Part shown: piece by piece, positions 19,308 through 41,964 of the stretch | Position numbering within the stretch: the stretch's first letter is position 1 | Layout of the letters: every line of letters starts with the position of its first letter | DNA from: Candidatus Pollutiaquabacter aromativorans | Lineage (GTDB): Bacteria > Bacteroidota > Bacteroidia > AKYH767-A > 2013-40CM-41-45 | Reading direction: 5' to 3' | Length of the DNA stretch: 64,000 nucleotides | Assembly: GCA_049177215.1 (NCBI GenBank) | Contig: CP185379.1 | Coordinates: 1,192,150 to 1,256,149 of the forward strand | Made by a program: the position numbers and the translations under genes | The notes under the pieces: generated by a model | Databases searched by the model: none | Seen by the model: only the letters and a program-made list of their open reading frames with translations | What the model was told of the DNA's origin: nothing

Positions 19308-19469
19308 TAGGGTGGAAATGCAAAATATCCCTACCGGCCAGCGGCATCAACTTATTTATGCTTTCAGCTTAAAATGGCAGGTCAACAGTGACCCAGCTGG
19401 GGTGAATCGTGATAGTTGTTAAAGTGCCCGTTATTCGGAAAGTATTGTATATAATTGAAAATCAATATA

Positions 19470-19511
19470 TTATAAAAATAGAAAAGGGCGCACCTTGCGG
19501 TACGCCCTTGA
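19470..19511 (-). terminator. rho-independent terminator downstream of the 19530..22118 gene
   Basis: aagggcg...cgccctt hairpin (19484-19510) followed on the minus strand by a U-run (plus strand tataaaaatagaaaa). Confidence 0.45.
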
Positions 19512-19529
19512 CTAATCACTACAATCAAC

Positions 19530-22118
19530 TTATTCTTTGACGAGTCGGATGGTCTCGTTCTGACCGGCGTACGTTACGTTAACCGTATAGATACCGGCAG
19601 CGAGGCCCTTGATGTCAAGGTTCTTGATGTAACCGTGACCGGCGTTCTCACGGGAGAAGGACATCACGTTACCCAGGATATCGCGTACGATGACCGTTAC
19701 TTCCGTATCCTTAACACCCGGAACCGTCAGTTGTACACGGTTGCGGCCAGGGTTCGGGAAGAGGTCGATGCCAGGTCCACCCACCGGGGTGATTTCAGGA
19801 CGAACCGTCTGGCACTGGATGAAGTTCACGACCACTGCGTCGAAGTTCTCGCAGCCGTTGTTGTCGGTGACGAGTACGGAGTACGTACCATCAACCGTGA
19901 CATCCAGCGTTTGAGCGGTGGAGTTGTCGTTCCACAGATAGGATGCGAAACCGGCACCAGCGTCGAGGGTAACCGTAGAACCGATGCAGCCGGTCACATC
20001 CGGACCAAGATCAACAACCGGAGCCTGGTTGACGGAACCAATCGTTACCGTCACGTAGCCGGTGCAACCGAAGTAGTCGGATACGGCAACCGTATAAGTG
20101 CCAGGAGCGAGGTTGTTAACCGTAGCGGTGGTGTCACCGTTCGGCATCCACAGGTAGGAGTAAGGAGCAGTACCACCCGAACCGGCAACCGTGGCAGAGC
20201 CATCATCACCGTTCGAACAGGTAGCGTCGGTCTGGCTGACGATCGAAGCGACAATGCCGCTCGAGTTAACCGTTCCGCTCAGGTTGGCGATACAACCGTT
20301 GGCGTCGGTTACCGTTACATCGTACATGCCAGGAGTCAGGCCGGTAGCGGTGCTTCCGGTGCTGACATTCGGATTCCATACATAGTCGAACGGACCCGTG
20401 CCGCTGGTCACGACCACTTCGATCGCACCATCGTTACCGTTACAGGTAGCGTCGGTGATAACCAGGCTGGCCAGAACCGGATCCGTACCGGTTACCGTAG
20501 CGGTAGCCGTAGCGGAACACTGATTGTTGTCGGTTACCGTCACCGTATAGGTGCCGGGAGCAAGTCCGGTAGCCGTTTCAGTGGTCTGAACCGGGCTGGT
20601 GTTCCAGCTATAATCATACTGAGGGGTACCACCCGTTACTGCAGCGGTAGCCTGACCCGCACCGCCGGTGCAGGAAGAGGTGGTTCCGGAAGCGGTGACA
20701 GACAATTGAGCCGGCTCGGTGATGGTGAAAGAGCGGGTACCTGCGCATCCAGCGCCATCGGTGATGGTTACAGAGTAGGTACCGGCGCCAAGACCGGAGA
20801 TGCTGGAAGTGGTGTCGGTTGTTGACCACAGGAAGCTGTACGGAGGAACGCCATTGGCGGACGCACTGGCAGAACCATCAAGATCTCCGAAGCAGGTTAC
20901 GCTCGGAGTACTCGTAACCGCTACATTGAGACCACCCACAAGGATGGAATAGGAGTAGGTCTGAACACCGTTGGAAGGACAAGCGTTGTCGCGTACCGTA
21001 ACCGTAAAGGTGTAAGGCTGGGGACGAGCATCGCCAGGACCCGGGGTCCAGCAGAAGGTTCCAACCGGCAGACGTCCGCCGCTTACCGTAAAGGTTGCGC
21101 CCGGGATACCGTTGTTCCAGGTCATGGTCAGGGTGTCACCGGGATCGGTGTCCGCCGTGATGATGTCGAAACAAAGCTGACCACCTGCGCAGGAAGAAGC
21201 GTTGAAGTTGGTCGTACCGTTGATACCGGTCGCGGTCGGCAGGGTATTGTTGCACTGCACCGTGTAAACCTGAAGATCGCGCATTACGCTGCCGATCAGT
21301 ACACCATTGCGGTACTCAAGGATCAGTACTGCGATCACACCAACTTCCGAAGCGGTCGGGTGGGTGAAGATGTCGCCCGTTACCGGGTCAATGCTGACGG
21401 CCGGGGAAGACGTGATCGGGTTCGAGATCGAGTAGCCCGGCTGGTAAGCCAGGTTGGTGTTCTGAGCGTCGCGCGGCGGGATGAAGAAGTAAGCGAGCGA
21501 ATCGCCTTCTGCATCAATGACACCGTGGTTGTAATAGTTATCCTGGCCGATGCACAGGAAGGTAACCGGTACGTTGGTAAAGGTCGGCGAAGTGTTGTCG
21601 AATACGGTGTTGTTCAACTTCGCTTCGATGTACAGGCTGTAGCTGTCGGGCGTACCGATCGTCGTGATCGCGCCGTTGCGGCAACAATCGGAAACCGAGA
21701 ACGTCCAGTCAGGACACTGAGCCGGAAGCGTAACGATTGCCGAGTATTCCCACTCCTGGAAACCAGGTGCTGTACCACCCGAACAGGTCGTCAGTGTGCC
21801 GGGACAAGCATAAGAGATTTCCTGTCCGGTTCCGGGTACCGCGTTGAGTGTAACGGACTGCGAGAAGTTGTTGCAGGACGCTGAACTCATCGTCATGAAA
21901 GCCGATGTCGGTGCAGGAATACCGAAACAGTCACGGTACAATGTGTAAGTCACAAGGTACTGTCCGTTGCCCAGGTATTCATACGTCAGGTCGGCACCAG
22001 CCATGTGACTGGCGTTGGCCGTCCGTCCACCCAGCAGCAGTGCTACCAGGAAGAAGAGGGCTCGAGCTGTCGCGCGAATCCCCGTTGTTTTGTGTACGTT
22101 GTACATCTTTTTAGTCAT
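19530..22118 (-). CDS. large T9SS cargo adhesin (862 aa) with five or more SprB-type repeats and type-A C-terminal sorting domain
   Basis: Signal peptide. Repeated C.GD.DGSA...GG..PYSY.W module. C-terminal LFPNPGRNRVQL...GIYTVNVTYAGQNETIRLVKE. Confidence 0.75.
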   Translation of the reverse strand: MTKKMYNVHKTTGIRATARALFFLVALLLGGRTANASHMAGADLTYEYLGNGQYLVTYTLYRDCFGIPAPTSAFMTMSSASCNNFSQSVTLNAVPGTGQEISYACPGTLTTCSGGTAPGFQEWEYSAIVTLPAQCPDWTFSVSDCCRNGAITTIGTPDSYSLYIEAKLNNTVFDNTSPTFTNVPVTFLCIGQDNYYNHGVIDAEGDSLAYFFIPPRDAQNTNLAYQPGYSISNPITSSPAVSIDPVTGDIFTHPTASEVGVIAVLILEYRNGVLIGSVMRDLQVYTVQCNNTLPTATGINGTTNFNASSCAGGQLCFDIITADTDPGDTLTMTWNNGIPGATFTVSGGRLPVGTFCWTPGPGDARPQPYTFTVTVRDNACPSNGVQTYSYSILVGGLNVAVTSTPSVTCFGDLDGSASASANGVPPYSFLWSTTDTTSSISGLGAGTYSVTITDGAGCAGTRSFTITEPAQLSVTASGTTSSCTGGAGQATAAVTGGTPQYDYSWNTSPVQTTETATGLAPGTYTVTVTDNNQCSATATATVTGTDPVLASLVITDATCNGNDGAIEVVVTSGTGPFDYVWNPNVSTGSTATGLTPGMYDVTVTDANGCIANLSGTVNSSGIVASIVSQTDATCSNGDDGSATVAGSGGTAPYSYLWMPNGDTTATVNNLAPGTYTVAVSDYFGCTGYVTVTIGSVNQAPVVDLGPDVTGCIGSTVTLDAGAGFASYLWNDNSTAQTLDVTVDGTYSVLVTDNNGCENFDAVVVNFIQCQTVRPEITPVGGPGIDLFPNPGRNRVQLTVPGVKDTEVTVIVRDILGNVMSFSRENAGHGYIKNLDIKGLAAGIYTVNVTYAGQNETIRLVKE

Positions 22119-28254: not shown

Positions 28255-31200
28255 ATGTACCTACGAATCCTATTCATCCTGACGGGCCTGTTGCTGACAC
28301 AGGTTGTAGTATCAGGACAAAATCAGGCTAATTCCGAATCCGAGCTGCGTAAGCGGGCAGATAAGTTATTTCAGGATCAGGAATATCTGACCGCTGTCGG
28401 GCCTTATTCCCAGTTGCTCAGCCTGCAGCCGAATGATGCCACCCTGAATTATCGTTATGGCACGGCCCTGTTGCTTTCCGGAAAAGACAAACGGAACGCG
28501 GTAAGCTACCTGGAAAAAGCCATGAACGACCCGGCACAACCGATGGAGGGCTGGGTGTACCTCGGACGATCTTACATGTTTCTGGGAAAGTACGAGGATG
28601 CTAAAAGTTGTTTCAACCGGTTTAATACCCGGGCAACGGACGCGCAGCGCAAGAAGTTCAATTCGGAAGAATGGCTTCGTTCCGCGGGTGCCGCATCGGA
28701 GTTATCCCGTCAACGCAGGATGGTCAGCGTGACCGCGCAGAAGGAAGTTTTACGTTCTGCAGCTTACTCTCAAATCGACTATACGAATGCTGCCGGTAGG
28801 ATCCTGCCGGTGCCGGAAAAGTTCCAGACGACAGCCGACAAAGACAAACAGGCTGCTCCGGTCATGTATCTGTCGCGCGACGGACAGACGATCTACTACG
28901 CCAGCTATGGGAAAGGGAGTGTGGGAGGAAAGGACCTCTATCTCATTCGTAAGATGACGAATGGGGAATGGGCACAACCCGAACACCTGGGGTCCGTGCT
29001 AAACTCCGTCTACAACGAGGATTATCCGTTCCTTGACCGGGATGGCAAAACGCTCTACTTCGCGAGCCAGGGTCACAATTCGATCGGTGGCTACGATATT
29101 TTCAAATCCGTTTTCAATTTCAATACCGGCCAATGGTCGGCACCTGAAAACCTGGGAATACCGCTGAACACTCCGGACGATGATCTGCTGTATGTGCCCG
29201 GCTCCGATGGTGTAACCGCCGTATACACCACCGCCGACTTTACAGATAACACGCACACCGAAATCCGTACCATCCACCTCGATGACCAGCGGAATCCTTT
29301 CGCTACCATTCGCGGAACGTATTATTCGATTGACCAGCCCATGCGTCGCGATGCTCGGGTCATTGTGCTGCGTGCAGCCGATCGTTCTGTTGTGACAACT
29401 GTTCGAACCGATCCGAGGACCGGAGATTATGAATTGGTTTTGCCGGGCGGTGAGTCGTACTGGCTTGTCATCGATGGCGGCGGCTATGTTCCGCATACCG
29501 AATCATTCGACCTGCCTGCAGGTCTCGAAAAAGCCGCGCTCCGACAGGAAGTGCGCATGAACCGCAACAAGCAGGAAGAATTGATGACGGTCACCAATTT
29601 CTTCACGCCCATGCCATCTGCCATTGGTGCTGATGTGATTGCAGTGAACGACCGTCCTAGTTCTACCGAAACATCTGCTACAACTCCGTCATCGGAGACA
29701 GTTCAAATCTCGGTCGGAAACGAAACGCTGATTGTTAGCAAACCGGTCAGTCAGCCGGTAACATCCCCTGAACAAGCCGGTGAAGTTCCGGTAACAGCCG
29801 ACCAGGCTGCAGATGAGGACACCTCACTCGCGGACAACTACAATCCGCTGTTGGACCGGGAGATGACCCAGGACGAAATCCGTCAACGCCAGGAAGAACA
29901 GCTTCGCTCGGAAGAAGTGGTCGCGGATGAAAAGATCCCCGCAGAGCAACTCCATGTGCCCGTCGATGAACACGAACTTGCACGCAGCGCCGTGGAGGAT
30001 GGTGTCGCCCTGCAACGCGAAGCGGACAGTCTGCAGGATCGCAGCCGGGAATTGTATGCGTCGGCTGCAAACCGCGAAGAGGAAGCAGTACGCTTACTCG
30101 AAGAAGCGCAGTCCATCAAAGAGGATACCGTTCGCGCAGCCAACCTCTACCTGCAATCGGATGATATGAAGCAGATGGCCCTTGCGGAAAAACAGCAGGC
30201 CAGGGAATTGGACGGGCTTGCAACCGAGCGTCGCGCTGAAGCAAAGCAGGCATTGACCGACGCGAAAGCCTTGATCAGTTCGACGAATACGAAAGACAAG
30301 GAACTTTCCGCTTCAGTTGACAGAGCCTTGGCCGGAACCAGTGAAAAGGCATCCGTTACTGCATCAAGTCCTAGTGCGGCTCAAGGAGTCACATCTCCCT
30401 CGTTGGAACCCATGGCCGAACAGGCTGTTGAAGTTCGTACGGAAGGTGTCTCTTCAACGGCCAACCCGACCAGTCAAACAACTCCGGCTGCCGGACAGCC
30501 GCAAGCTGCGGATGAAGAACAGTTGGCGACAACTTCTCCAAATCAGCAAGAGCAAAATCAAACTGCGGCGACAACTTCCAGGGTATCTCCCGATTCAAAC
30601 GATTCCGGCGTCGTCGCCGTCCAGCAAAATGTCTCAGAAGAATCTCAACCAACTGCGGACTTTAAACGTGGACATGCGGCTGAATCGTCCGGAAAGGAGA
30701 CTGGGAAACCGGTTGTCGGTACGAATCCGGAGGGCTCGTCTGTTTCAGAGAAAAATACTGCTGATGTCCTTGCTGCCGGAACCAACCCTGCAATTACTGC
30801 AAGCGATGAGCATGCAGCAAACGACAAGCAATCGGTTATTGAACCCGAAACAACCGTAAATGCAACCACTAAGCCTGAAGGATTACCGGAACAAAAGGCA
30901 CAGCAATCGGCTGATGAGCGGACTGTAGCGATCCATCAAGCGTCCGAAGAACAACCAAAGGCCGAACCGAATGCAATGGAGAACAGGCCCAAAGATCAGG
31001 CAACTTCGTCGGGAGAGCCTGTTGTCATCGCCGGGCAGCCCACAAGGGAATCAGAGAGCCGTCAACAACCGACCGCCAATCAGCCTTCCGCTGGAAAATC
31101 AAAAGATGATAAAGTTGCAGCGACAACCGGGACGTCGCAACCGACATCTTCTACTGCAGCTAACGCAACGACCATTCGTTCCACGGATGATGCTGCGCAA

Positions 31201-34200
31201 TCGGTACCGGTGGCTGTCAACGCAGACGGTGCTCCGGTTTCCCCCCAGACTACGCAAAACACAGACAGGACCAGAGCTACGACCGGAACTCAAACCGGCA
31301 GCACTGATCGGAGCACCTCAGCAACCCGACTGACGATGGTTCCGGCTATGGAAGGTGTAAGCGAAGAAACGAGGCTGGCTTATCAGAACTACAAGCAACG
31401 GATGGAATTCTCCTCGCGGCTCGACGAACGTTCAAAAGAACTGCAGACGCAAGTGGCAACGATGAAGAACTCTCCGGAACGGGATAGCCTCATCCAGTTG
31501 TCCAACTCCATGAGTATGGAATCAATCCGACAGTGGCAATCGGCTCAACAACAATTACAACTTGCCAAGGCGGATGATCCGGAGATCCAAACCAAAGCGG
31601 AAACTGCCATCGCAACGGCAAAGGCTGCAGAACCTGCAGCGGAGCCCGTCGTAACGAGTCAGGAGCTTGCCACTGTTGCAAACCCGGTGCGACGCGACGC
31701 TGTGCCGACCGGCGAGTCAGCTGCCAGGACCGGCGTATCCGGAAACCAGTCGGCGAATACGAATCGTGCTGATCGTTCGGAGCAACCGGCGGGAACACAA
31801 CCTGCCACTTCCGGACAAGTTAGCGCGATAAAAACCGATGTCGAGGAAACGAATCAACTTTCGGTTACACCAACGACCCCGTCGGTTGAACCGGCTTCCG
31901 GGGAAGCGCGGAATGATGGACAGCTTGCTTCCAACGTGTCCGGAAATCAAGCTGCTGACCGTGTTAGCAACGATGGCGAAGGCCAGCGATTAGAAGTTTC
32001 AGCAAATAACCCGAACGAGCCCCGACCAGTGTCGGGTGGAGATGTCGCTCCAGCAACATCCACTGGCGAAATAAGCCGGAACGAATCAAGGCAGGGTGCG
32101 ATCTCGCCTTCGGCTGAACAAGGTACTACCACTGCCCGGCAGGATCGGAGCGATGCTACGCCTGCGGCTGGACGAGGCGATGAGCAGGCGGTTGCCACGA
32201 AACCATCAACGATTCCATCCGGCGCAGAGCGTGCGGGACAAGTCGTTGCCAACCCGGATCAGACACCAGGTGAAAGACCGGCTTCTGCTGAGCGATCGAA
32301 CCCTGTTTCGAAAGAAGCTGCGCCTACTGTATCCGGTCAGGAAACCGTCACCAACCAATCCGAAAGGCAGGAATCCGTTCGTTCGTCGGAAACCCAGGAG
32401 TCCGGAGGTCAACGGAATTCCAATGCGGTTCAAACTGCAACAGACCGGACAAGGATCGCAGACAATACGGAGCCGGCAGTTACTCCAGCCAATGCTGTTT
32501 CCAACACTCCTACGAATACAACCACTCAAGCGGCAGACAACCGAAATACCGTCAATGAACAGCAGCCGGGCGCGATGCAGCAACCTGCTCAACCCGCAAC
32601 CTCCCAGGTTGAACTGGTGTACGATACGGCTTCCGTTCGGAGCAAATTGCAATCCAATGAAGATGTTCCGGTCGCACAACTGGACTCCTCCCACAAGGAT
32701 TTTCCGCGTTACCTCAAATTGCGCCAGGAAGTGGGAGAGAAGCAGGACGAAACCATCCGCTTGTTTTCTTCGGCTATCGAGTTGAACAAGAAAGCATCCC
32801 AAGAGAAAGAAGAACAAGTCGATCTGATGCAAAAAGCGGAAGCTACCGCCGATGCCAACGAAAAAGCCAAACTGCTCCGCAGCGCTGAAAAGCGTAAACA
32901 CGATTCGGAAGAACACGAAGCGGAAGCCGGCAAACTGATGGCGCAGGCGCAAAAGCTTTCCGACGAGATCTGGGAAAACAACCAGTCGCTCGAAGCGCTC
33001 AGCCTGGCGATCCGAAAGTCGGGTCCTGCACGTACTTCTCCTGCCACTACGCCTGGAACTTCCGGAACAACGACTACCGACATTCGACCGGCAACTATTC
33101 CGGAAATGGATGAGACGGTACGCGCTGAATCATCTGTTTCAATACAGCAGACCGGCAATGATCGTGCGCCGGTCAAAGCAGGCCCGCTTACCGTTCCGGG
33201 CATCGAACGCATGGTCGTGCGCAGCGACAAACCCGCGTACACCGATACTGCACCGATACCGGTGGATCAACCCCTGCCCGAAGGACTCGTCTTCAAAGTC
33301 CAGATCGGCGCTTTCCGCAAACCGATTCCGAACGAAGCCTTTGGCGGTTTGTCGCCCGTCAGCGGCGAAAACACCCGTCCGGGTTGGATCCGTTACTGTG
33401 TCGGTCTCTTCCGCACCTTCGAGCCGGCCAACCTGGTGAAGAAAGCCATGCGCGGACAGGGTTTCAAAGACGCGTTCGTCGTCGCTTACTTTAACGGCAA
33501 ACGGATCTCACTTGGCGAAGCCTATGCCATGCTGAACCAGGCGGGCAGTGACTCCCGTGCGACCTATGCTTCCGTATCCCGTGAAGAATTACAACGCCTG
33601 AAAGCACTCAACATCGTTCCGCAGCGTACCAGCGCACCGGATCGTGACGAACAGGAATTCTTCGGAGGAACTACTTCGGCATCGGCTGACGGTTTCGGTA
33701 CCGGTACGGCTTATGCGGTGCAGGTGGGTGTGTATCGATCTTCCATTCCGCCTGCCGTACTGGGCAGTCTGCAACCTTTACAGCAGGAAGCTTTGCAGCG
33801 CGGTCTTTTCCGCTATACCACCGGACGATACCAGGTTTACGCTTCCGCCGATTCCATGCGCCGAGTCGCTGTGGCCGCCGGTATCCCGGATGCCTTTGTT
33901 GTCGCTTACCGCGATGGTCGTCGTGTCAGCCTGAGCAACGCGCGGCGCAGCGAGACCGGTACGTCAGGATCTACGGTGGTGCGTCCACAACCTGCAGCTT
34001 CAACACCCGCCGCGCAACCGGCAGTTGAAACCGGAGCCATCACGTTCCGGGTACAGGTTGGGGCATTCCGTCAGCAGGTTCCTTTCCAGGTGGTCGATGC
34101 ACTCCTGAAAGTATCGGATCGTGGCGTAGAACGCGAGCAGGATCCGCGCGGACTGCAGGTCTTCTTCGCCGGACGTTTCTCGGACTACGAATCCGCCCGG

Positions 34201-34311
34201 AAGCTGAAGGAAGAAGTGGTGGGCCGCGGTGTGCCGGATGCTTTCGTGGTAGCCTTCAGCGGCACGAAACGGATCCCCCTGGCCGAGGCCTTGCGGCAGG
34301 TAGGTCAATAA
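28255..34311 (+). CDS. giant (2018 aa) secreted protein: TPR, then PD40/TolB-like propeller, then about 1300 aa of low-complexity/coiled-coil, then three C-terminal SPOR (septal peptidoglycan-binding) domains
   Basis: Signal peptide. TPR (YRYGTALLLSGKDKRNAVSYLEKA...). PD40 repeats (YLSRDGQTIYYAS..., LDRDGKTLYFAS...GGYDIFKS). Long A/T/S/Q/E/P-rich and coiled-coil stretches. Three SPOR units (FKVQIGAFR...GFKDAFVVAY, YAVQVGVYR...IPDAFVVAY, FRVQVGAFR...VPDAFVVAF). The ORFs on the opposite strand and in other frames inside it look spurious. Confidence 0.8.
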   Translation: MYLRILFILTGLLLTQVVVSGQNQANSESELRKRADKLFQDQEYLTAVGPYSQLLSLQPNDATLNYRYGTALLLSGKDKRNAVSYLEKAMNDPAQPMEGWVYLGRSYMFLGKYEDAKSCFNRFNTRATDAQRKKFNSEEWLRSAGAASELSRQRRMVSVTAQKEVLRSAAYSQIDYTNAAGRILPVPEKFQTTADKDKQAAPVMYLSRDGQTIYYASYGKGSVGGKDLYLIRKMTNGEWAQPEHLGSVLNSVYNEDYPFLDRDGKTLYFASQGHNSIGGYDIFKSVFNFNTGQWSAPENLGIPLNTPDDDLLYVPGSDGVTAVYTTADFTDNTHTEIRTIHLDDQRNPFATIRGTYYSIDQPMRRDARVIVLRAADRSVVTTVRTDPRTGDYELVLPGGESYWLVIDGGGYVPHTESFDLPAGLEKAALRQEVRMNRNKQEELMTVTNFFTPMPSAIGADVIAVNDRPSSTETSATTPSSETVQISVGNETLIVSKPVSQPVTSPEQAGEVPVTADQAADEDTSLADNYNPLLDREMTQDEIRQRQEEQLRSEEVVADEKIPAEQLHVPVDEHELARSAVEDGVALQREADSLQDRSRELYASAANREEEAVRLLEEAQSIKEDTVRAANLYLQSDDMKQMALAEKQQARELDGLATERRAEAKQALTDAKALISSTNTKDKELSASVDRALAGTSEKASVTASSPSAAQGVTSPSLEPMAEQAVEVRTEGVSSTANPTSQTTPAAGQPQAADEEQLATTSPNQQEQNQTAATTSRVSPDSNDSGVVAVQQNVSEESQPTADFKRGHAAESSGKETGKPVVGTNPEGSSVSEKNTADVLAAGTNPAITASDEHAANDKQSVIEPETTVNATTKPEGLPEQKAQQSADERTVAIHQASEEQPKAEPNAMENRPKDQATSSGEPVVIAGQPTRESESRQQPTANQPSAGKSKDDKVAATTGTSQPTSSTAANATTIRSTDDAAQSVPVAVNADGAPVSPQTTQNTDRTRATTGTQTGSTDRSTSATRLTMVPAMEGVSEETRLAYQNYKQRMEFSSRLDERSKELQTQVATMKNSPERDSLIQLSNSMSMESIRQWQSAQQQLQLAKADDPEIQTKAETAIATAKAAEPAAEPVVTSQELATVANPVRRDAVPTGESAARTGVSGNQSANTNRADRSEQPAGTQPATSGQVSAIKTDVEETNQLSVTPTTPSVEPASGEARNDGQLASNVSGNQAADRVSNDGEGQRLEVSANNPNEPRPVSGGDVAPATSTGEISRNESRQGAISPSAEQGTTTARQDRSDATPAAGRGDEQAVATKPSTIPSGAERAGQVVANPDQTPGERPASAERSNPVSKEAAPTVSGQETVTNQSERQESVRSSETQESGGQRNSNAVQTATDRTRIADNTEPAVTPANAVSNTPTNTTTQAADNRNTVNEQQPGAMQQPAQPATSQVELVYDTASVRSKLQSNEDVPVAQLDSSHKDFPRYLKLRQEVGEKQDETIRLFSSAIELNKKASQEKEEQVDLMQKAEATADANEKAKLLRSAEKRKHDSEEHEAEAGKLMAQAQKLSDEIWENNQSLEALSLAIRKSGPARTSPATTPGTSGTTTTDIRPATIPEMDETVRAESSVSIQQTGNDRAPVKAGPLTVPGIERMVVRSDKPAYTDTAPIPVDQPLPEGLVFKVQIGAFRKPIPNEAFGGLSPVSGENTRPGWIRYCVGLFRTFEPANLVKKAMRGQGFKDAFVVAYFNGKRISLGEAYAMLNQAGSDSRATYASVSREELQRLKALNIVPQRTSAPDRDEQEFFGGTTSASADGFGTGTAYAVQVGVYRSSIPPAVLGSLQPLQQEALQRGLFRYTTGRYQVYASADSMRRVAVAAGIPDAFVVAYRDGRRVSLSNARRSETGTSGSTVVRPQPAASTPAAQPAVETGAITFRVQVGAFRQQVPFQVVDALLKVSDRGVEREQDPRGLQVFFAGRFSDYESARKLKEEVVGRGVPDAFVVAFSGTKRIPLAEALRQVGQ

Positions 34312-34352: not shown

Positions 34353-34643
34353 ATGATCCGTTTCCAGAACGAAGGCGAACTCGCCTTTGAAGAGCTAGTA
34401 GACAACAAGACCGAAGAAGTCCGGGTCCGCGATCTCGTGTTGTACAACGACGACGTGAACACCTTCGATTTCGTCATCCAGTGCCTCATCGAAGTCTGCA
34501 AGCACGACGCCTTGCAAGCCGAGCAATGCACCTATATCGTGCATTACAACGGTAAGTGTACCGTCAAGACCGGGTCCTACCTGCAACTGAATCCCATGCG
34601 TCAGGCTTTGCTCGACCGTGGACTTTCCGCCGTAATCGATTGA
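34353..34643 (+). CDS. clpS: ATP-dependent Clp protease adaptor ClpS
   Basis: VRDLVLYNDDVNTFDFVIQCLIEVCKHD is the ClpS core. 96 aa. Confidence 0.8.
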   Translation: MIRFQNEGELAFEELVDNKTEEVRVRDLVLYNDDVNTFDFVIQCLIEVCKHDALQAEQCTYIVHYNGKCTVKTGSYLQLNPMRQALLDRGLSAVID

Positions 34644-34707: not shown

Positions 34708-35512
34708 ATGAGTTCCCGTTCCCTGTTCGCCGGCCTGGCGCTGGCCGTAGTGCTGGTTTCCTGTAGCAAAGTACCCATCACCAAGCGCAAGCAGATGAAC
34801 CTGCTGCCGGAATCCCAGTTGGTTTCCCTGAGCCTGACCAATTATCAGGACTTCCTCAAGCAAAACCCGCCGGTCAAGGGCACCGCCGATGCGGCCCTGG
34901 TGCAGCGGGTCGGAACGAAGGTGGCCGACGCGGTCATCAAGTTCATGAACCAAAACAAGATGGGCGACCGGATCAAAGGCTATCAGTGGGAATTCAACCT
35001 CGTGAACAGTCCGGATGTCAATGCCTGGTGCATGCCGGGAGGTAAGGTGGTCGTGTATGCAGGCCTGTTGCCCGTTACGCAGGATGAGACCAGCCTGGCC
35101 ATTGTCATGGGACACGAGATCGCCCATGCGGTGGCACGACACGGCAACGAGCGCATGAGCCAGATGATGGTAGCGCAAGGGGATGGGCATGGCCCTGGAT
35201 GTGGCCCTTTCCCAGCAGCCGGCCCAGACCCGCAACATGTTCCTCACGGCCTACGGCGCGGGTTCGACCCTCGGCATCCTGGCCTATTCGCGTACCCACG
35301 AAACCGAAGCCGACAAGCTCGGACTCATCTTCGCCGCCATGGCCGGGTATGATCCGCGCCTGTCGGTCGCCTTTTGGGAGCGCATGAGCGCCAAGAGCAG
35401 CGGCAACAAACCGCCCGAATGGATGAGTACCCACCCCAGCGACGCGACCCGCATCAGCAACCTCAAAGCCTTCATGCCCACGGCTTTGAAATATTACAAA
35501 ACCGGCTCCTGA
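34708..35512 (+). pseudogene. M48-family zinc metallopeptidase lipoprotein (HExxH...E), interrupted by an apparent +1 frameshift in a G4 run at about 35179-35182
   Basis: ORF 34708..35352 carries HEIAHAVARHG and then runs out of frame after ...MSQMMVAQG. ORF 35183..35512 in the +1 frame carries the rest, including the third Zn ligand in HETEADKLGL. Removing one G of GGGG restores a single about 267-aa M48 protein. Confidence 0.7.
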
Positions 35513-35659: not shown

Positions 35660-36164
35660 CTACTGACACAATAGACCCTTGATTATCAAGATGATAGTCG
35701 AGGGTTTTTTGTTGGTGGACGCCTGTGTGGGCACTCTTTTGCTTTGCTTGCCTTTTCCAAGAACCTCTCGAGGGCGGATTTGCTTGTGCACAGCTCGTTA
35801 AGCTTTTTCAAAGTACGAACGCTTACAAACTTCTTCTAAAATATTGGGGTGTTAAGAATGCCTGGGTCGGTAGTATTCCTTAAATGAAACTTTCATCTGG
35901 ATAATTTATATTAGCAAGGCAATCTTTATGGTCGCGCCCTTTTGCTTGACAGCAAAGGTTCCTACTCAGATGCGAAACCATTTAACGGCATTCGCAATTT
36001 TCGCCATTGTGTCATATTACAATGGAATCTAAATGTTGTTATGATATAGCAGCTGGATTGTTTTAAAAACAGTTTCCGAAGAAGGCTTCTGATAATATAA
36101 CTCGAACTTTCTGTTACCCCTGGATGATTAATTAGGTATTTCCCAACTTCTAAATAAACTAGCT

Positions 36165-37748
36165 ATGCGAGTCTTGCTCTTTCAATGGTTTTTACTAATT
36201 ACAATACAGATTATTAATGCCACTTCTTCGATTGCTCAGCAGCAACAGGGGATAGAGTGGGCCGTGTCTTATGGAGGAGCTAGCATTGACGTAGGAAACT
36301 CTATTCAACTTACCAGCGATGGTGGTTATGTTGCAATTGGAAAGAGTCGTTCAAGTGATGGTGACATCACTGTAAATCACGGCAGGGAAGATTACTGGGT
36401 TGTAAAGATCTCGAGCGATGGGAGTATTCAATGGCAAAAGTCTTTTGGCGGATCATCAGAGGATAATGGAAGATTCGTCCAGGGCACCTCAGATGGAGGA
36501 TACATTTTGATTGGATTTACAATGTCTAATGATGGCGACGTAATTGGAAATCATGGTGGTTATGATTGTTGGGTTGTAAAGCTGGATAGCATAGGGGATA
36601 TTGAATGGCAGAGAGCTTTAGGAGGATCGGGCATGGATGCCGGTGTATCAATTATTCAAACTTCCGATGGAGGTTATGCCATGATTTCTGTGTCAGATTC
36701 TAATGATGGAGATGTATACGGGAACAATGGCCAAACAGACTTTTGGGTTGTGAAACTTTCAGAATTAGGTAACATTGAATGGCAAAAATCTTTAGGGGGG
36801 AGTAGTTCTGAAACGGCATCCTCTATTCAACAAACTGCTGATGGGGGATACATTGTATCGGGTCAGAGTAGTTCCAATGATGGCGATGTTACTGGAAACC
36901 ACGGGGACTCTGATTTTTGGATAGTTAAATTGTCGAGTTTCGGAGATATACAATGGCAGAATTCGTACGGAGGGGCAGCTTATGATCATGGTCTGTCGAT
37001 TCAAGAAACTGCAGATGGAGGGTATATAACATGTGGTTTTGTTGAATCAAATAATGGTAACGTGACTTTTAATCACGGAAGTCGTGATGTTTGGGTACTT
37101 AAGTTATCTAATAATGGTGATTTGGAATGGGAAAAGTCATTTGGAGGCACTGGGGATGATTGGGGGCATGAAATTCAAATCACTTCTGATGGCGGATATG
37201 TGATTCTCGGACACAGTAATTCTAATGATGGAGATGTATTTAATATTCATGGATCAAGGGATTATTGGGCGATAAAGTTGTCTAATTTTGGTGTATTGGA
37301 GTGGCAAAAGACCTTAGGTGGTTCAGAATCTGACATAGGGCATTCTATTCGGCAAACCCTTGACGGTGGGTTTATCCTAATTGGTGAAAGTCAATCAAAT
37401 GATGGCGATGTGACTGGAAATCATGGTGCTTCCGACTATTGGATTGTAAAGTTAAATGCAACAATTGGGTTGTCCGAGTTTTCTGACTTTGAATGGACAA
37501 TTGTTTCCCCAAATCCAGTAACTAGTAGATTAACCATTAAAGTATCACTTACAAATTCTGAAGATCTTCAAGTTTATATACGGGACTTGCTTGGTCATGT
37601 AGTTTTAGAACCAATAAAATTGAATAATGTCAGCGGATTGGTTGAACAATCAATATCAACAACTATGCTTTCCGACGGAATGTACTTGCTTGATATTGTT
37701 GGGCTAAAATGGAGAAAAACTAAGCGAATAATCATAGTTCAAAGATGA
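36165..37748 (+). CDS. T9SS cargo protein with eight tandem ~48-aa SBBP-type beta-propeller repeats and a type-A C-terminal sorting domain
   Basis: Signal peptide. Repeat (I/L)EWQKS.GGS..D.G.SI.QTSDGGY...G.S.SNDGDV.GNHG..D.WVVKL occurs 8 times. C-terminal SPNPVTSRLTIKV...GMYLLDIVGLKWRKTKRIIIVQR. Confidence 0.7.
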   Translation: MRVLLFQWFLLITIQIINATSSIAQQQQGIEWAVSYGGASIDVGNSIQLTSDGGYVAIGKSRSSDGDITVNHGREDYWVVKISSDGSIQWQKSFGGSSEDNGRFVQGTSDGGYILIGFTMSNDGDVIGNHGGYDCWVVKLDSIGDIEWQRALGGSGMDAGVSIIQTSDGGYAMISVSDSNDGDVYGNNGQTDFWVVKLSELGNIEWQKSLGGSSSETASSIQQTADGGYIVSGQSSSNDGDVTGNHGDSDFWIVKLSSFGDIQWQNSYGGAAYDHGLSIQETADGGYITCGFVESNNGNVTFNHGSRDVWVLKLSNNGDLEWEKSFGGTGDDWGHEIQITSDGGYVILGHSNSNDGDVFNIHGSRDYWAIKLSNFGVLEWQKTLGGSESDIGHSIRQTLDGGFILIGESQSNDGDVTGNHGASDYWIVKLNATIGLSEFSDFEWTIVSPNPVTSRLTIKVSLTNSEDLQVYIRDLLGHVVLEPIKLNNVSGLVEQSISTTMLSDGMYLLDIVGLKWRKTKRIIIVQR

Positions 37749-37798: not shown

Positions 37799-39250
37799 AT
37801 GTTCGAACAAACCTTCAAAAACATCGACGACATCCTCCACAAAGACGCCGGTTGCGGTAGCGAACTGGACTATGTGGAACAGACTTCATGGGTGTTGTTT
37901 CTAAAATACCTGGATGACCTGGAGAAAGACCGCGCCACGGCTGCTGAACTGACGGGTAAGACGTACACGCCCATCATCGACAAAAAGTACCAGTGGTCGG
38001 TCTGGGCGGCGCCCAAGGGTAAGGATGGCAAACTGGACCACCACAAGGCGATGACCGGTGACGACCTGACCGACTTCGTGAACGGCAAGCTGTTTCCCTA
38101 CCTGAAAAAGTTCAAGACGGATGCGGACAGCGCGGATACCATCGAATACAAGATTGGCGAAATCTTCAGCGAACTGAAAAACCGCCTGCAAAGCGGATAT
38201 AACCTGCGGGAGGTCATCAACCTCATTGACGAGTTGCGTTTCCGTACCCACGCAGAGAAGCACGAAATGAGCCACCTCTACGAGGAGAAGATCAAGAACA
38301 TGGGCAACGCCGGGCGCAACGGCGGCGAGTACTACACGCCGCGCCCGCTCATCACCACCATCGTGAAGGTGATTGACCCGAAGATTGGCGAGAAGATCTA
38401 CGACGGCGCCTGCGGCTCGGCAGGCTTCCTGTGCGAAGCTTTTGCCTACCTCAACAAGAAAGGGCTGTCCAGCAAGGATACAGTGACTCTCCAGAAGAAG
38501 ACCTTCTATGGCAAGGAAAAGAAATCGCTGGCCTACATCATCGGCATCATGAACATGATCCTGCACGGTGTGGAAGCCCCCAACATCATACACACCAATA
38601 CACTGGCCGAAAACCTCGCGGACATACAGGAAAAAGACCGCTACGATGTGGTGCTTGCCAATCCGCCTTTTGGTGGAAAGGAGCGTGCCGAAGTGCAACA
38701 AAACTTCCCGATTAAAACAGGCGAAACCGCTTCGCTCTTTTTACAGCACTTCATTAAAATATTGAAAGCAGGTGGCAAGGCAGGTGTGGTTATTAAAAAC
38801 ACTTTTTTGAGTAATACCGATAACGCCTCTGTCGCCATCCGAAAGACCTTGTTGGAGAGTTGTAACCTTCATACGGTGCTGGATTTGCCAGGTGGCACGT
38901 TTACAGGAGCTGGTGTAAAAACGGTAGTGCTGTTTTTTGAAAAAGGTAAGCCCACAAAGAAGGTATGGTATTATCAGCTGAACCTTGACCGTAATTTAGG
39001 TAAGACCAACCCGCTCAATGAAAAAGACTTGGCGGACTTCGTGCAGCTCCAAAAATCCTTCAAGGATAGCGAGAACTCTTGGACGATAAACGTAAAGGAC
39101 ATCGACCAGAGCACGTTTGACTTGAGCGTGAAGAATCCGAATAAAAAGCAGGAAGTTGCCTTGCGTCAACCGCAAGAAATTTTAGAGGAGATGAAGGCGC
39201 TGGATGAAGAGAGTGCGGAAATCTTTAATTCAATATTGGAGCTGTTATGA
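37799..39250 (+). CDS. hsdM: Type I restriction-modification system, DNA methyltransferase subunit M
   Basis: HsdM N-terminal domain (WVLFLKYLDDLEK), SAM motif I (DGACGSAGFL) and catalytic NPPFGG (VLANPPFGGKE). 483 aa. Stop overlaps the hsdS start (ATGA). Confidence 0.9.
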   Translation: MFEQTFKNIDDILHKDAGCGSELDYVEQTSWVLFLKYLDDLEKDRATAAELTGKTYTPIIDKKYQWSVWAAPKGKDGKLDHHKAMTGDDLTDFVNGKLFPYLKKFKTDADSADTIEYKIGEIFSELKNRLQSGYNLREVINLIDELRFRTHAEKHEMSHLYEEKIKNMGNAGRNGGEYYTPRPLITTIVKVIDPKIGEKIYDGACGSAGFLCEAFAYLNKKGLSSKDTVTLQKKTFYGKEKKSLAYIIGIMNMILHGVEAPNIIHTNTLAENLADIQEKDRYDVVLANPPFGGKERAEVQQNFPIKTGETASLFLQHFIKILKAGGKAGVVIKNTFLSNTDNASVAIRKTLLESCNLHTVLDLPGGTFTGAGVKTVVLFFEKGKPTKKVWYYQLNLDRNLGKTNPLNEKDLADFVQLQKSFKDSENSWTINVKDIDQSTFDLSVKNPNKKQEVALRQPQEILEEMKALDEESAEIFNSILELL

Positions 39251-39732
39251 AGCAGGGTTGGGAAATAAAGAAGTTGGGAGAGATTGTTGATATTGTTAAT
39301 GGAAGGAATCAATCTTCAGTGCTCTCTGAAAATGGACCATATCCTATTTACGGAAGTGCTGGTAATTTGATGGGCTATTCAACGGAGTATTTGTGTGATA
39401 AAGGCACCACTATAATCGGAAGAAAGGGGAATATCTCTACCCCAATCTTCATTGATGAAAGATTTTGGAACGTAGATACTGCCTTTGGATTATTCCCCAA
39501 AAATGGAAGCATCCCCAAGTTTATTTATTATTTATGTCTTACCATTGATTTCAAAAGTCGAAACAGGGGTACAACTATTCCGAGTTTAGTCAAATCAGAC
39601 TTATTGACCATTGATGTCCCATTTGTTAAGTCCCTCCCCGAACAACAACGCATTGTTTCCATATTAGACGAGTGCTTTGCCGCCATAGCCAAGGCAAAAG
39701 CCAATGCCGAAGAAGAACCTCAAAAACGCTAA
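39247..39732 (+). CDS. hsdS: Type I R-M specificity subunit S, N-terminal target-recognition-domain half (ends in the central conserved region)
   Basis: MKQGWEIKKLGEIVDIVNG... is a typical HsdS start. It ends ...ILDECFAAIAKAKANAEEEPQKR* inside the central conserved spacer. Confidence 0.75.
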   Translation: MKQGWEIKKLGEIVDIVNGRNQSSVLSENGPYPIYGSAGNLMGYSTEYLCDKGTTIIGRKGNISTPIFIDERFWNVDTAFGLFPKNGSIPKFIYYLCLTIDFKSRNRGTTIPSLVKSDLLTIDVPFVKSLPEQQRIVSILDECFAAIAKAKANAEEEPQKR

Positions 39733-40348
39733 GGAACTTTTTGAGAGTTATTTGCAGGGGGTGTTTGAGAATGGGGATTGGGACACGAAAACCATTGAAC
39801 TGGTATGTGATGAAATATTTGCAGGTGGTGATGCGCCCCAAAACAATTTTTCATTGGAGTCCAATAAAAAACATAATATTCCTATATACGCAAATGCTGT
39901 AAAAGATAGAGGTCTGTACGGCTATACTGACTTTGCAAGAGTTAACAAGCCTTGTGTGACAATAGCAGCAAGGGGGAGTGGTACAGGGCACACGGAATTA
40001 AGGAATGAACCATTTTTGCCTATTGTAAGGCTCATTGTATGTATTCCAAACTGCAAAATAATCACAGCCGAATTCCTCAAATACACGATAGATAATTTAG
40101 TGATTCAGCGCAGCGGTAGTGCGATTCCACAACTAACTGTTCCGATGATAAAGGACTATATTATACCAGTTCCACTTATTGAAGAGCAAAAACAGATTAT
40201 TGAAAAGGCAGAAGCACTTAAAGAACAAAAAGCAAGACTCGAAAATGTATATCAAAAGAAGTTGGAAGACTTGGAGGAGTTGAAGAAGGCCATCCTTCAA
40301 AAGGCATTTGCTGGGGAGTTGAAAACAGGAAAACCGGTTGCGGCATGA
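39704..40348 (+). CDS. hsdS: Type I R-M specificity subunit S, C-terminal target-recognition-domain half (different frame, overlaps previous ORF by 29 nt)
   Basis: Continues the conserved central/C-terminal regions (NLKNAKELFESYLQ ... EEQKQIIEKAEALKEQKARLENVYQKKLEDLEELKKAILQKAF). Together the two ORFs make a normal two-TRD HsdS. Confidence 0.7.
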   Translation: MPKKNLKNAKELFESYLQGVFENGDWDTKTIELVCDEIFAGGDAPQNNFSLESNKKHNIPIYANAVKDRGLYGYTDFARVNKPCVTIAARGSGTGHTELRNEPFLPIVRLIVCIPNCKIITAEFLKYTIDNLVIQRSGSAIPQLTVPMIKDYIIPVPLIEEQKQIIEKAEALKEQKARLENVYQKKLEDLEELKKAILQKAFAGELKTGKPVAA

Positions 40349-41235
40349 GTTGGAACGAAAAAAGCATGTTAAATGAGCCATCCGGAGAATGGGGTGGTCC
40401 CTGGACTGAAAAAAAGCTTGAAGCTTTTTCAAAATATGTGTGGTCTTACCTAACCATTATGAAGAAGTTCCCTTTTTGGAAAACCATCTACTTTGATGGC
40501 TTTGCGGGAAGCGGAACAAGGGATAAGCGGGCGAATGCTCATTTGATGCAACAACTAAAAATCACAGACGAAGAAGAAGAAACTTATAAAGGTGCTGCCG
40601 AAAGGGTTTTAGGTTTGCAAGAATTGGGGTTTGACTTTTACTATTTTATTGACAAAAACGACACTTCGCTGAATAAATTGAAAACAAAACTGGGTGATAG
40701 ATTTAAAGATAAAACGATTGTTTACCGGTCAGGAGATGCGAACGTTCAAATAGCCGAGCTTGCAAAAGCCTTGCGAACCAAAGATTACGCAGCATTGGTT
40801 TTTCTTGACCCTTTCGGCATGCAAATAGATTGGAATTCCATAGAAGAATTAAAAGATACACGTTCTGATGTATGGATTTTAGTTCCAACGGGCGTTATTG
40901 TAAATCGTCTATTGGACAGAGCAGGAAAATTGGAGTTTAGCGATAAACTCCAATCATTTTTCGGCTTGCCAATTGAAGAAATCAAAACACATTTCTACGA
41001 AGAAAAAAAAGTGCAGACACTTTTCGGAGTAGAAGAAATCATCACAAAGGTTTCTCGACCTATTGAGAAAATTTCAAGTTTGTATGCCGAACGAATGAAA
41101 ACTATCTGGAAGCACGTTACGGATGAACCACTAGTATTGAAGAACCGAAACGGCTCACCTATATTTCATTTCGTATTTGCATCAAATAATCAGAATGCAA
41201 AAAAGATTGCTAAACAAATTATTCATAACATTTAA
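40345..41235 (+). CDS. TcmP-like (three-Cys-motif partner protein) family protein; unknown function
   Basis: 296 aa. N-terminal W..KKLEAF.KYV..Y, glycine-rich YFDGFAGSG and VFLDPFG motifs as remembered for the TcmP family (TIGR04474). Start overlaps the hsdS stop by 4 nt and it is followed 3 nt later by a Gp37/Gp68 gene. Family assignment is from memory, not a search. Confidence 0.55.
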   Translation: MSWNEKSMLNEPSGEWGGPWTEKKLEAFSKYVWSYLTIMKKFPFWKTIYFDGFAGSGTRDKRANAHLMQQLKITDEEEETYKGAAERVLGLQELGFDFYYFIDKNDTSLNKLKTKLGDRFKDKTIVYRSGDANVQIAELAKALRTKDYAALVFLDPFGMQIDWNSIEELKDTRSDVWILVPTGVIVNRLLDRAGKLEFSDKLQSFFGLPIEEIKTHFYEEKKVQTLFGVEEIITKVSRPIEKISSLYAERMKTIWKHVTDEPLVLKNRNGSPIFHFVFASNNQNAKKIAKQIIHNI

Positions 41236-41238
41236 CCT

Positions 41239-41964
41239 ATGGCACAATCAAGTATAGAATGGACTGAAATGACTTGGAATCCAACAACGGGTTGCGATAA
41301 AATTTCGGCAGGTTGCAAATTCTGTTATGCGGAAGTAATGGCAAGGCGATTAAAAGCAATGGGCGTTGAAAAATATGCCAATGGCTTTGAGTTGGCTATT
41401 CACGAAGATGAATTGCAAACACCTTACACTTGGAAAAAATCGAAAATGGTATTTGTAAATTCAATGAGCGACTTATTTCATAAAGACGTGCCCGTTGAAT
41501 TTATTCAAAAGGTATTCAGAGTAATGAAAGAAAATCCGCAACACGTTTTTCAAATTTTGACCAAACGGGCTGATTTGCTTTTATATTATGATAAAGAAGG
41601 ATTGTTGGAATGGGCGCACAACATCTGGATGGGTGTTTCGGTAGAAAGCGAAAAAGTGATGAACCGGATTGACCTTTTGCGTCAAACCAATGCAAGAGTA
41701 AAATTTTTAAGTTGCGAGCCGTTAATAAGCCCTCTGCCAAATTTGAATTTAAAAGGCATTGATTGGGTAATAGTAGGCGGTGAAAGCGGAAGAACGCCAA
41801 GACCCATGAAAAAGGAATGGGTAATGGAAATTAAAGAACAATGTAGGAAAAAAGATGTAGCGTTTTTCTTTAAGCAATGGGGCGGAACGAACAAAAAGAA
41901 AACAGGCAATCTGCTTAACGGCAAAAAATATTTAGAAATGCCAGAAATAGTTGAATCGAAATGA
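41239..41964 (+). CDS. phage protein Gp37/Gp68 family (DUF5131), three-Cys-motif radical-SAM-like protein
   Basis: IEWTEMTWNPTTGCDKISAGCKFCYAE carries the family-defining N-terminal Cys triad (C-x6-C-x2-C). 241 aa. Stop overlaps the hsdR start (ATGA). Confidence 0.75.
   Translation: MAQSSIEWTEMTWNPTTGCDKISAGCKFCYAEVMARRLKAMGVEKYANGFELAIHEDELQTPYTWKKSKMVFVNSMSDLFHKDVPVEFIQKVFRVMKENPQHVFQILTKRADLLLYYDKEGLLEWAHNIWMGVSVESEKVMNRIDLLRQTNARVKFLSCEPLISPLPNLNLKGIDWVIVGGESGRTPRPMKKEWVMEIKEQCRKKDVAFFFKQWGGTNKKKTGNLLNGKKYLEMPEIVESK

Follow-up and report, generated by a model that had tools for sequence, protein, structure and literature searches.

The two best-understood ways in which Gram-negative proteins attach to the cell wall are those of SPOR proteins and of PorE/Pal-type anchors. 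PorE of Porphyromonas gingivalis (PG1058) is a 668-residue lipoprotein in which a TPR domain (residues 25-153) is followed by a five-bladed propeller of ~270 residues, a CRD and an OmpA_C domain (PMC5053529). Its propeller binds the outer-membrane barrel PorP, and its binding of peptidoglycan is essential (PMC12773672). Bacteroidota carry 2-13 PorE-like paralogues, some of them with extensions (PMC5053529). In Cytophaga hutchinsonii, loss of CHU_0125, a 'Pal-like' protein of TPR, PD40 and OmpA_C domains, damages outer-membrane integrity and leads to sixfold more vesicles (PMC5891637). Here we analysed a window of 64,000 nucleotides from Candidatus Pollutiaquabacter aromativorans (contig CP185379.1, positions 1,192,150 to 1,256,149 of the forward strand; coordinates below are those of the window) and describe one of its genes, encoding a protein of 2018 amino acids, hereafter the giant protein, which combines elements of both attachments: a PorE-like head, a very long spacer and three predicted SPOR domains.

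The SPOR domains tested so far, including one from C. hutchinsonii, bind denuded glycans, that is, glycan strands stripped of their peptide stems by amidases, with micromolar affinity and localise to the septum (bioRxiv 10.1101/2022.07.01.498525; PMC6895207). The contacts to denuded glycan are Q270 and R309 in RlpA and Q251 and R285 in FtsN; Q270 of RlpA touches the lactyl group of the glycan, and septal localisation of FtsN depends on the corresponding residue, Q251 (PMC6895207).

Gene integrity and domain architecture

The complete gene lies at 28255..34311 on the + strand, which also carries all its features described below. The open reading frame (ORF) list and translation confirmed a single uninterrupted frame from the ATG at 28255 to the stop codon ending at 34311, comprising 2018 codons plus stop (6057 nt), as an earlier sequence-only reading of this DNA had proposed. 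The gene has a GC content of 51-61% over its length and a marked excess of A over T in its middle third. This odd composition and strong skew, together with a frameshift in the neighbouring M48 gene of the window, would fit a middle region produced by faulty assembly or gene calling, or a gene decaying into a pseudogene, and the sequence-only reading had itself named misassembly of the middle as a result that would undo it. We consider these explanations vanishingly improbable. The frame is open over all 6057 nt, and the gene contains no DNA tandem repeats except one trivial 15-bp doublet. A collinear gene is present in an NCBI metagenome-assembled genome (MAG; GCA_020051655.1) and in the Logan assembly of a separate run, SRR11088434; over 6057 nt there are 25 mismatches and no indel. 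Because two independent assemblies agree without indels and tandem repeats are absent, the gene is real and the artefact reading fails. Of the 25 nucleotide differences from GCA_020051655.1, 15 are synonymous and 10 change an amino acid, and hundreds of homologues share the three-part layout at similar length. The near-identical NCBI protein (10 substitutions, 0 indels) is named 'MAG: PD40 domain-containing protein [Bacteroidia bacterium]'.

The giant protein begins with a predicted signal peptide, residues 1-22 (28255..28320), read from the sequence as MYLRILFILTGLLLTQVVVSG with cleavage before Q and no lipobox Cys. The site, VSG followed by Q, is of the signal-peptidase-I type with Gly-Gln at the junction; a Gln at +1 is typical of signal-peptidase-I sites in Bacteroidota. 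By regular expression, an x-x-[AGS]-Q site occurs in 79 of 120 homologues and a lipobox-like motif in 10. The only Cys residues in the whole protein are C119 and C1715, leaving none within the first 118 residues, and AlphaFold2 placed a helix over residues 2-22 with low confidence. The giant protein thus appears to be Sec-exported and processed by signal peptidase I, without a lipid anchor.

Three modules make up the head. A TPR domain with three repeats plus capping helices spans residues 28-152 (28336..28710). It is followed by a PD40-type β-propeller or propeller-like domain at residues 157-345 (28723..29289), assigned by Pfam PD40, NCBIfam and AlphaFold2, and by a CRD-like β-sandwich at residues 349-449 with three extra strands at residues 470-495 (29299..29739), assigned by Pfam, the PorE profile and AlphaFold2. 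Pfam PD40 matched residues 245-283 of the full-length protein at 36.7 bits against a cutoff of 20.9, and scored 36.7-40.8 bits with two repeats across scans. The full-length scan gave many Pfam TPR matches below threshold, and tandem helix-turn-helix repeats were recovered by profile and fold. With the head scanned alone, Pfam CarboxypepD_reg matched weakly (18.8 bits against a cutoff of 32.3). In an AlphaFold2 model of residues 1-700, built on 18 homologues (predicted local distance difference test score, pLDDT, 80.3), the TPR helices occupied residues 28-152, an all-β region residues 157-345 (pLDDT 81-91), and further strands residues 349-449 and 470-495.

The best NCBIfam match was CHU_0125_OmpA (NF053607; E=8.6e-30, 103.8 bits against a cutoff of 620), whose best stretch placed residues 205-311 on profile positions 280-382 of 639. 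The T9SS PorE model (NF052230) matched at E=6.8e-25 and 87.4 bits against a cutoff of 600, covering only profile positions 231-489 of 648 and reaching residue 419. Both matches are confined to the propeller and CRD region and lie far under their full-length cutoffs. On these profile matches, we take the head to be homologous to the heads of PorE and CHU_0125. The two models bear out the statement that this type of head usually ends in an OmpA domain; in the giant protein no OmpA domain, including OmpA_C, matched in Pfam or NCBIfam at E<=1. Calling the propeller 'TolB-like', on the other hand, was not justified: profile and sequence searches of the PDB returned no TolB chain, the combination of a TolB N-terminal domain, a six-bladed PD40 propeller and similarity to TolB was not found, and the region measures ~190 residues as compared with 270 in PorE.

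At the C-terminus are three domains of ~90 residues each: SPOR domain 1 at residues 1675-1763 (33277..33543; Q1683, W1711, R1713), assigned by Pfam, AlphaFold2 and a family profile; SPOR domain 2 at residues 1816-1903 (33700..33963; Q1823, R1853), assigned by paralogy and AlphaFold2; and SPOR domain 3 at residues 1927-2018 (34033..34308; Q1934, with the β2 Arg replaced by Val), assigned by Pfam, AlphaFold2 and alignment A3. The three are mutual paralogues (E 1e-11 to 1e-14), domain 2 matching domain 1 at E 4e-14 and domain 3 at E 3.6e-11. When paralogues were searched for three times, each search found three copies in at least 106 of the best 120 homologues and four in a few; some homologues of Flavobacteriales type carry a fourth SPOR-like copy. 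The full-length protein matched Pfam SPOR (PF05036) at E=0.23 only. The C-terminal 359 residues scored 26 bits, above the gathering cutoff of 21 (E=1.2e-5). SPOR was also matched by each of the 26 homologue C-termini that were aligned (best 1.5e-13). A single-domain family profile of 39 sequences hit the SPOR structure of Bacillus subtilis CwlC (1x60; E=1.2e-5) in one continuous stretch. Designed helical repeat proteins, which ranked higher when alignment A3 was searched as a profile against the PDB, were discarded as spurious, as the match was pieced together from many weak, repeated stretches.

Structure prediction was consistent with this assignment. AlphaFold2 modelled the block (pLDDT 85.7) as three β-α-β-β-α-β units that each continue into a short strand and a helix, with pLDDT of 88-97, 84-94 and 80-96 for SPOR domains 1, 2 and 3. 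As judged from predicted structure only, this is the ribonucleoprotein (RNP)-like SPOR fold of a four-stranded antiparallel sheet and two helices. Foldseek matched CwlC 1x60 with probability 1.00, TMt 0.62 and 25% identity, and also listed DedD 6ztg. Foldseek matches to the whole three-SPOR block (ACT- or ferredoxin-like) were multi-domain and mostly meaningless, and only the single-domain CwlC and DedD matches were taken as informative.

The residues associated with glycan binding are also largely present. The β1 Gln occurs in all three copies (Q1683, Q1823, Q1934) within Q-[IV]-G-[AV]-[FY] motifs, is at least 90% conserved in alignment A3 and aligns with the QIGAF motif of CwlC; the β2 Arg is R1713 in SPOR domain 1, R1853 in SPOR domain 2 and Val in SPOR domain 3. 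The block has a net charge of +11. Its β1 Gln and basic patch were equated with those of FtsN and RlpA by motif and not by structural superposition. In a conservation profile made by aligning the giant protein to 43 closer homologues (44 sequences in total), no other part was as well conserved as SPOR domain 1 (63-79% identity). Each copy continues into a conserved C-terminal extension with the consensus DAFVVAY-x-NGKRI-xxx-EA, corresponding to the short strand and helix. Several of the Flavobacteriales-type homologues with a fourth copy lack both the key Gln (KVK or QVL replacing KVQ) and the DAF motif in their last copy, which suggests that this terminal domain is degenerate and does not bind glycan. 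On the combined profile and model evidence, which holds at the family level, we accept the triple-SPOR assignment, and the proposed TPR, PD40 and triple-SPOR layout stands.

Spacer and conserved islands

Between head and SPOR domains, residues 451-1660 (1210 residues) consist of 58% A/T/S/Q/E/P and 16% hydrophobic residues, with a net charge of -66. The sequence-only reading had described ~1300 residues of disordered sequence rich in A/T/S/Q/E/P; the low complexity holds, and the uniform disorder does not, as three conserved helical islands interrupt the region. Island 1 (residues 539-693; 29869..30333), defined by AlphaFold2, the conservation profile and a hidden Markov model (HMM), comprises a helix at 539-559, a helical hairpin at 572-620/625-676 and a helix at 682-693, with pLDDT 86-94 over residues 572-676. 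Identity to the 43 homologues in this region (residues ~520-690) is 16-31%. Its HMM matched 46 of 70 distant homologues directly behind the head, with E down to 1e-14, and island 1 is therefore a family-wide module. The HMMs of islands 2 and 3 matched just 4-5 of the 70, so that island 1 alone can be called family-wide.

Islands 2 and 3 were defined by the conservation profile. Island 2 (residues 1035-1115; 31357..31599) shows 28-48% identity at full alignment occupancy and contains a near-invariant motif, S-P-x-R-D-S-L-I-x-V-S-N, at residues 1073-1084 (31471-31506), in which D1077 is present in 44, S1078 in 42 and L1079 in 41 of the 44 sequences. The invariant D-S-L core of this motif fits the Bacteroidota O-glycosylation sequon D-[ST]-[AILVMT]. 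Island 3 (residues 1478-1595; 32686..33039), probably helical and rich in E/A/K, reaches 42% identity and carries the motif [YF]-P-x-Y...K-Q-x-E-T-I-x-x-F, with F1504 in 44, T1500 in 43, Q1497 in 42 and Y1486 in 42 of the 44 sequences. Coiled coils had been claimed at residues 540-700 and 1500-1620. Helices are indeed predicted in the first region and residues 1495-1558 lack Pro and Gly; a home-made heptad heuristic reached the 95% shuffle level only at residues 1555-1590, marginally, and was not significant at residues 628-658. As the heptad evidence is marginal, we call these regions helices and not coiled coils.

Such short near-invariant motifs within a spacer could be taken as the mark of an FtsN-like divisome regulator, in which SPOR domains target the protein to the septum and a helical island activates or regulates septal wall synthases or hydrolases. 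FtsN itself, a bitopic inner-membrane protein whose N-terminus is cytoplasmic, has a transmembrane helix and one SPOR domain and acts via its E domain, an essential periplasmic helix. The class A PBPs PBP1A and PBP1B are stimulated by DamX and DedD (PMC7642682). As in most SPOR proteins (PMC6895207), the SPOR domains here are joined through a low-complexity linker, and the automatic JGI name of one homologue includes 'cell division protein FtsN'. The N-terminus, however, is a cleavable signal peptide followed by TPR, with no N-terminal transmembrane anchor or cytoplasmic FtsA-binding peptide; Pfam and NCBIfam scans detected no similarity to FtsN outside the SPOR domains, of which there are three, and no NCBIfam FtsN match; and the gene lies outside any division gene cluster. 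We therefore regard a regulator of this kind as highly improbable.

Between the islands lie two indel-rich stretches, each of ~350 residues and with 1-14% identity to the homologues. Spacer 1 (residues 694-1034; 30334..31356), defined by conservation profile and composition, is gapped and 5-14% identical to the 43 homologues, and contains 65% A/T/S/Q/E/P and 12% hydrophobic residues. Spacer 2 (residues 1116-1477; 31600..32685), defined by the conservation profile, is hypervariable, with 1-12% identity and alignment occupancy down to 7%. The distance from the head to the first SPOR domain is nevertheless similar across 114 homologues (median 1192 residues, interquartile 1066-1313, range 591-1544), and composition is similar throughout. 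Spacer length and composition are thus kept while the sequence drifts. In distant homologues, the middle is more helical and charged and not S/T/P-rich.

Differences between strains are concentrated in spacer 2. Of the 24 codons that differ from the 99.6%-identical GCA_020051655.1 relative, 15 fall within residues 1107-1295 (31573-32139; 9% of the gene), and 8 of these 15 alter the amino acid. This cluster reflects either locally relaxed constraint or a recombination tract in the spacer. A mucin-like periplasmic glycoprotein was also considered and rejected: the O-glycosylation sequon given above was not enriched (6 observed, 7.4 expected).

A disordered chain of 1200 residues would measure >400 nm along its contour and, as estimated by polymer scaling, typically a few tens of nm from end to end. 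The earlier description of the protein as 'periplasm-spanning' does not account for this, because 1200 residues far exceed the width of the periplasm. An alternative is that the giant protein is a wall-anchored polymer, whose acidic disordered spacer forms an entropic brush or gel and thereby determines how the periplasm is spaced, hydrated or crowded, while the islands or head self-associate or cross-link. Such a role would fit the net charge of -66, conservation of length and composition in place of sequence, the concentration of strain differences in spacer 2, and a reach which, inferred from chain length, far exceeds the distance from wall to outer membrane. However, the head and hairpin are better conserved and resemble specific interaction modules, and the helical, charged middle of the distant homologues departs from the S/T/P-rich composition seen here; we think a purely polymeric function unlikely.

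Distribution and genomic neighbourhood

Relatives of the giant protein are widespread. Two homologue searches returned 330 and 1669 protein clusters, whose listed members are 1.4-2.7 thousand amino acids long, many with precomputed SPOR and PD40 matches. With one genome taken per GTDB species, a pattern scan confirmed that at least 540 genomes contain relatives. The best 80 of the scanned relatives all came from MAGs, nearly all labelled Bacteroidota, Bacteroidia or Flavobacteriales, and 64 complete genes in the fetched loci encoded 1450-2587 residues. Among the named sources are Vicingaceae and a MAG with the label Vicingus serpentipes, so that a cultured carrier may exist. Three carrier MAG records were labelled Akkermansia sp., Paludibacter propionicigenes and Hydrocarboniphaga daqingensis; the Akkermansia sp. 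and Hydrocarboniphaga daqingensis bins look mislabelled or contaminated, because the family was otherwise seen here only under Bacteroidota labels. Database names for the family are generic ('PD40 domain-containing' or 'hypothetical'), and literature searches, some of them on SPOR terms, turned up no description of the architecture. The giant protein is therefore one of a large unstudied family, mostly from uncultured Bacteroidia and Flavobacteriales, in which familiar parts occur in a striking combination.

Immediately downstream, as had been noted, lies clpS (34353..34643, + strand), separated by a 41-bp gap and identified as an ORF and by a Pfam ClpS match of the equivalent gene in GCA_020051655.1. 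Next, after 64 bp, is a gene for an M48 lipoprotein metallopeptidase (34708..35512, + strand), present as two overlapping ORFs. A 1-nt insertion, an additional A near 35177, splits it; its counterpart in GCA_020051655.1 is intact and encodes 267 residues with Pfam Peptidase_M48. The M48 gene is also a divergence hot spot, with ~45 mismatches in ~700 nt compared with 0.46% over the whole 17.4-kb collinear block. A terminator-like hairpin with a 16-bp stem plus T run follows at 35673..35707 (+ strand), and none was found before 35673. The short gaps and the position of the first terminator-like hairpin behind the M48 gene suggest a single three-gene transcription unit, in which clpS is probably co-transcribed with the giant gene. 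A sigma-70 promoter scan found 4 sites where 3.4 were expected and is uninformative for Bacteroidota.

In close relatives the gene order is rsmB-like methyltransferase, giant gene, clpS and M48 peptidase. Among 70 loci with enough downstream sequence, clpS was directly next in 39, the M48 gene lay within 2.5 kb in 31, and both were found in 27; the order giant gene-clpS-M48 persists in loci whose SPOR region is as little as ~32% identical. The annotated neighbourhoods of distant homologues vary, and only clpS and the M48 gene recur. The association of a cytoplasmic N-degron adaptor, ClpS, with a giant periplasmic protein has no obvious functional explanation.

Beyond this unit, synteny with GCA_020051655.1 stops at 35663, beside the strong hairpin. 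The sequence from there to 44312 is a low-GC island (38-46% GC) holding, at 36165-37748, a repeat protein that ends in a type IX secretion system (T9SS)-type C-terminal domain (CTD) and, at 37799-44312, a type I restriction-modification system accompanied by extra genes, and looks like a strain-specific insertion. On the other side, 6-10 kb upstream, two large genes at 17724-22118 (- strand) encode SprB-repeat proteins with T9SS C-terminal sorting domains. The organism therefore has a type IX secretion or gliding-type cargo repertoire.

These cargo genes, upstream and downstream, are relevant to another explanation, in which the giant protein is a PorE paralogue serving T9SS or gliding: its head would sit on a PorP/SprF-like barrel and its SPOR domains would act as a generic wall anchor in place of OmpA_C, with no link to division. 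The match of the head to the T9SS PorE model across propeller and CRD, the binding of PorP by the PorE propeller (PMC12773672) and the abundance of PorE-like paralogues in Bacteroidota, up to 13 and some extended (PMC5053529), are all consistent with such a role. Several observations speak against it. First, the score of 87 is far from the PorE cutoff of 600, and both lipobox and OmpA_C are missing. Second, no T9SS core gene adjoins the giant gene in any of five annotated contexts. Third, all characterised SPOR domains prefer denuded glycans, which are unevenly distributed (PMC6895207; bioRxiv 10.1101/2022.07.01.498525). Lastly, the anchor of a fixed machine needs no flexible spacer of 1200 residues. 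We consider a T9SS anchor doubtful.

Proposed function and comparison with known systems

The core of our interpretation, that the giant protein is an exported protein which binds the wall through its SPOR domains and carries a protein-binding head, is probable. More tentatively, and by analogy with the systems above, we propose that it may act as a long tether between a protein partner of the head and peptidoglycan, coupling outer-membrane components to amidase-processed, septal wall; we hold this at somewhat less than even odds. The three basic SPOR domains would bind denuded glycans, which are concentrated at the division septum and new poles, and the presence of three copies should confer avidity for amidase-processed wall. 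The TPR-propeller-CRD head probably docks onto an outer-membrane-associated partner, because the homologous propeller of PorE binds PorP, and the three helical islands probably offer additional binding sites that help to hold it. Since the reach of the spacer far exceeds the gap between wall and outer membrane, it would have to act along the periplasm and not across it. In effect, it would be an anchor in the manner of PorE, CHU_0125 and Pal, built on SPOR domains where they rely on OmpA_C. Given the behaviour of all SPOR domains characterised so far, septal targeting is reasonable to infer; like denuded-glycan binding, the outer-membrane partner and the physiological role, it is drawn by analogy.

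Several results weigh against the tether. When the SPOR copies were scanned singly, copy 1 scored 17.2 bits and copy 3 18.1 bits (profile positions 4-75 of 76), all copies falling under the Pfam cutoff and copy 2 giving no match. The propeller is ~80 residues shorter than that of PorE, and neither a TolB nor a PorE structure appeared among the fold-search results, where TPR matches filled both lists. Unlike PorE, the head has no lipid anchor, and its association with the outer membrane is by analogy only. A spacer of 1200 residues is unneeded for bridging wall and outer membrane, so that simple tethering leaves its role unexplained. No division, cell-wall, Tol or T9SS-core genes adjoin the giant gene in the annotated contexts, and the recurrent neighbours are cytoplasmic clpS and an M48 peptidase. 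Finally, the CHU_0125 mutant shows no division defect (PMC5891637).

A bolder and rather unlikely version of the tether is that in many Bacteroidota, with no obvious single-gene equivalent, it is chiefly the giant protein that links invagination of the outer membrane to the processing of septal wall. The triple SPOR would sense septal amidase activity, the head would capture an outer-membrane partner, and the acidic chain would serve as an in-plane entropic leash or brush, together forming what might, at similarly long odds, be an answer, built on SPOR domains and a disordered chain, to the task handled by Tol-Pal in Proteobacteria. If so, the conserved arrangement with clpS and an M48 protease of outer-membrane type would point to a unit dedicated to envelope maintenance. 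The tether model itself, if true, would explain how outer membrane and septation are coordinated in these bacteria, and would offer a natural test case for what very long disordered chains do in the periplasm.

Among known systems, the SPOR proteins FtsN, DamX, DedD, RlpA, CwlC and CHU2221 share with the giant protein the C-terminal SPOR fold, the β1 Gln, the basic patch and a low-complexity linker (PMC6895207). They have one SPOR domain, a linker of tens to ~150 residues and an inner-membrane anchor or catalytic domain, whereas the giant protein has three copies (four in some homologues), a linker of ~1200 residues and a soluble PorE-like head. Its spacer is ~10 times longer than in any studied SPOR protein, with length and not sequence conserved. 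The Tol-Pal/CpoB system of Proteobacteria differs in that the giant protein fuses the parts in one polypeptide; the TPR similarity is generic, and no TolQRA-type energising genes were found near the giant gene.

The closest likeness is to the OmpA_C-type anchors. PorE and the giant protein share the order of TPR, PD40/WD40 propeller and CRD, with nearly equal TPR limits (25-153 and 28-152), and both are periplasmic proteins, in the case of the giant protein by prediction, ending in a module that binds peptidoglycan non-covalently. They differ in that PorE binds peptide-bearing peptidoglycan through OmpA_C, where the giant protein terminates in three SPOR domains. The giant protein also lacks a lipobox, has a propeller region of only ~190 residues, and adds a conserved helical hairpin and a 1000-residue spacer; lacking the full-length score, OmpA_C and a lipoprotein signal, it falls outside the PorE family proper. 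CHU_0125, the best NCBIfam match, shares the head type and a presumed role in envelope integrity through wall attachment. However, CHU_0125 is a protein of 656 residues that ends in OmpA_C and has neither spacer nor SPOR domains, and the giant protein, without its full-length score or OmpA_C, is not a member of that family either. Overall, the giant protein would work most like an anchor of the PorE, CHU_0125 or Pal type in which OmpA_C has been exchanged for SPOR domains on a very long leash.

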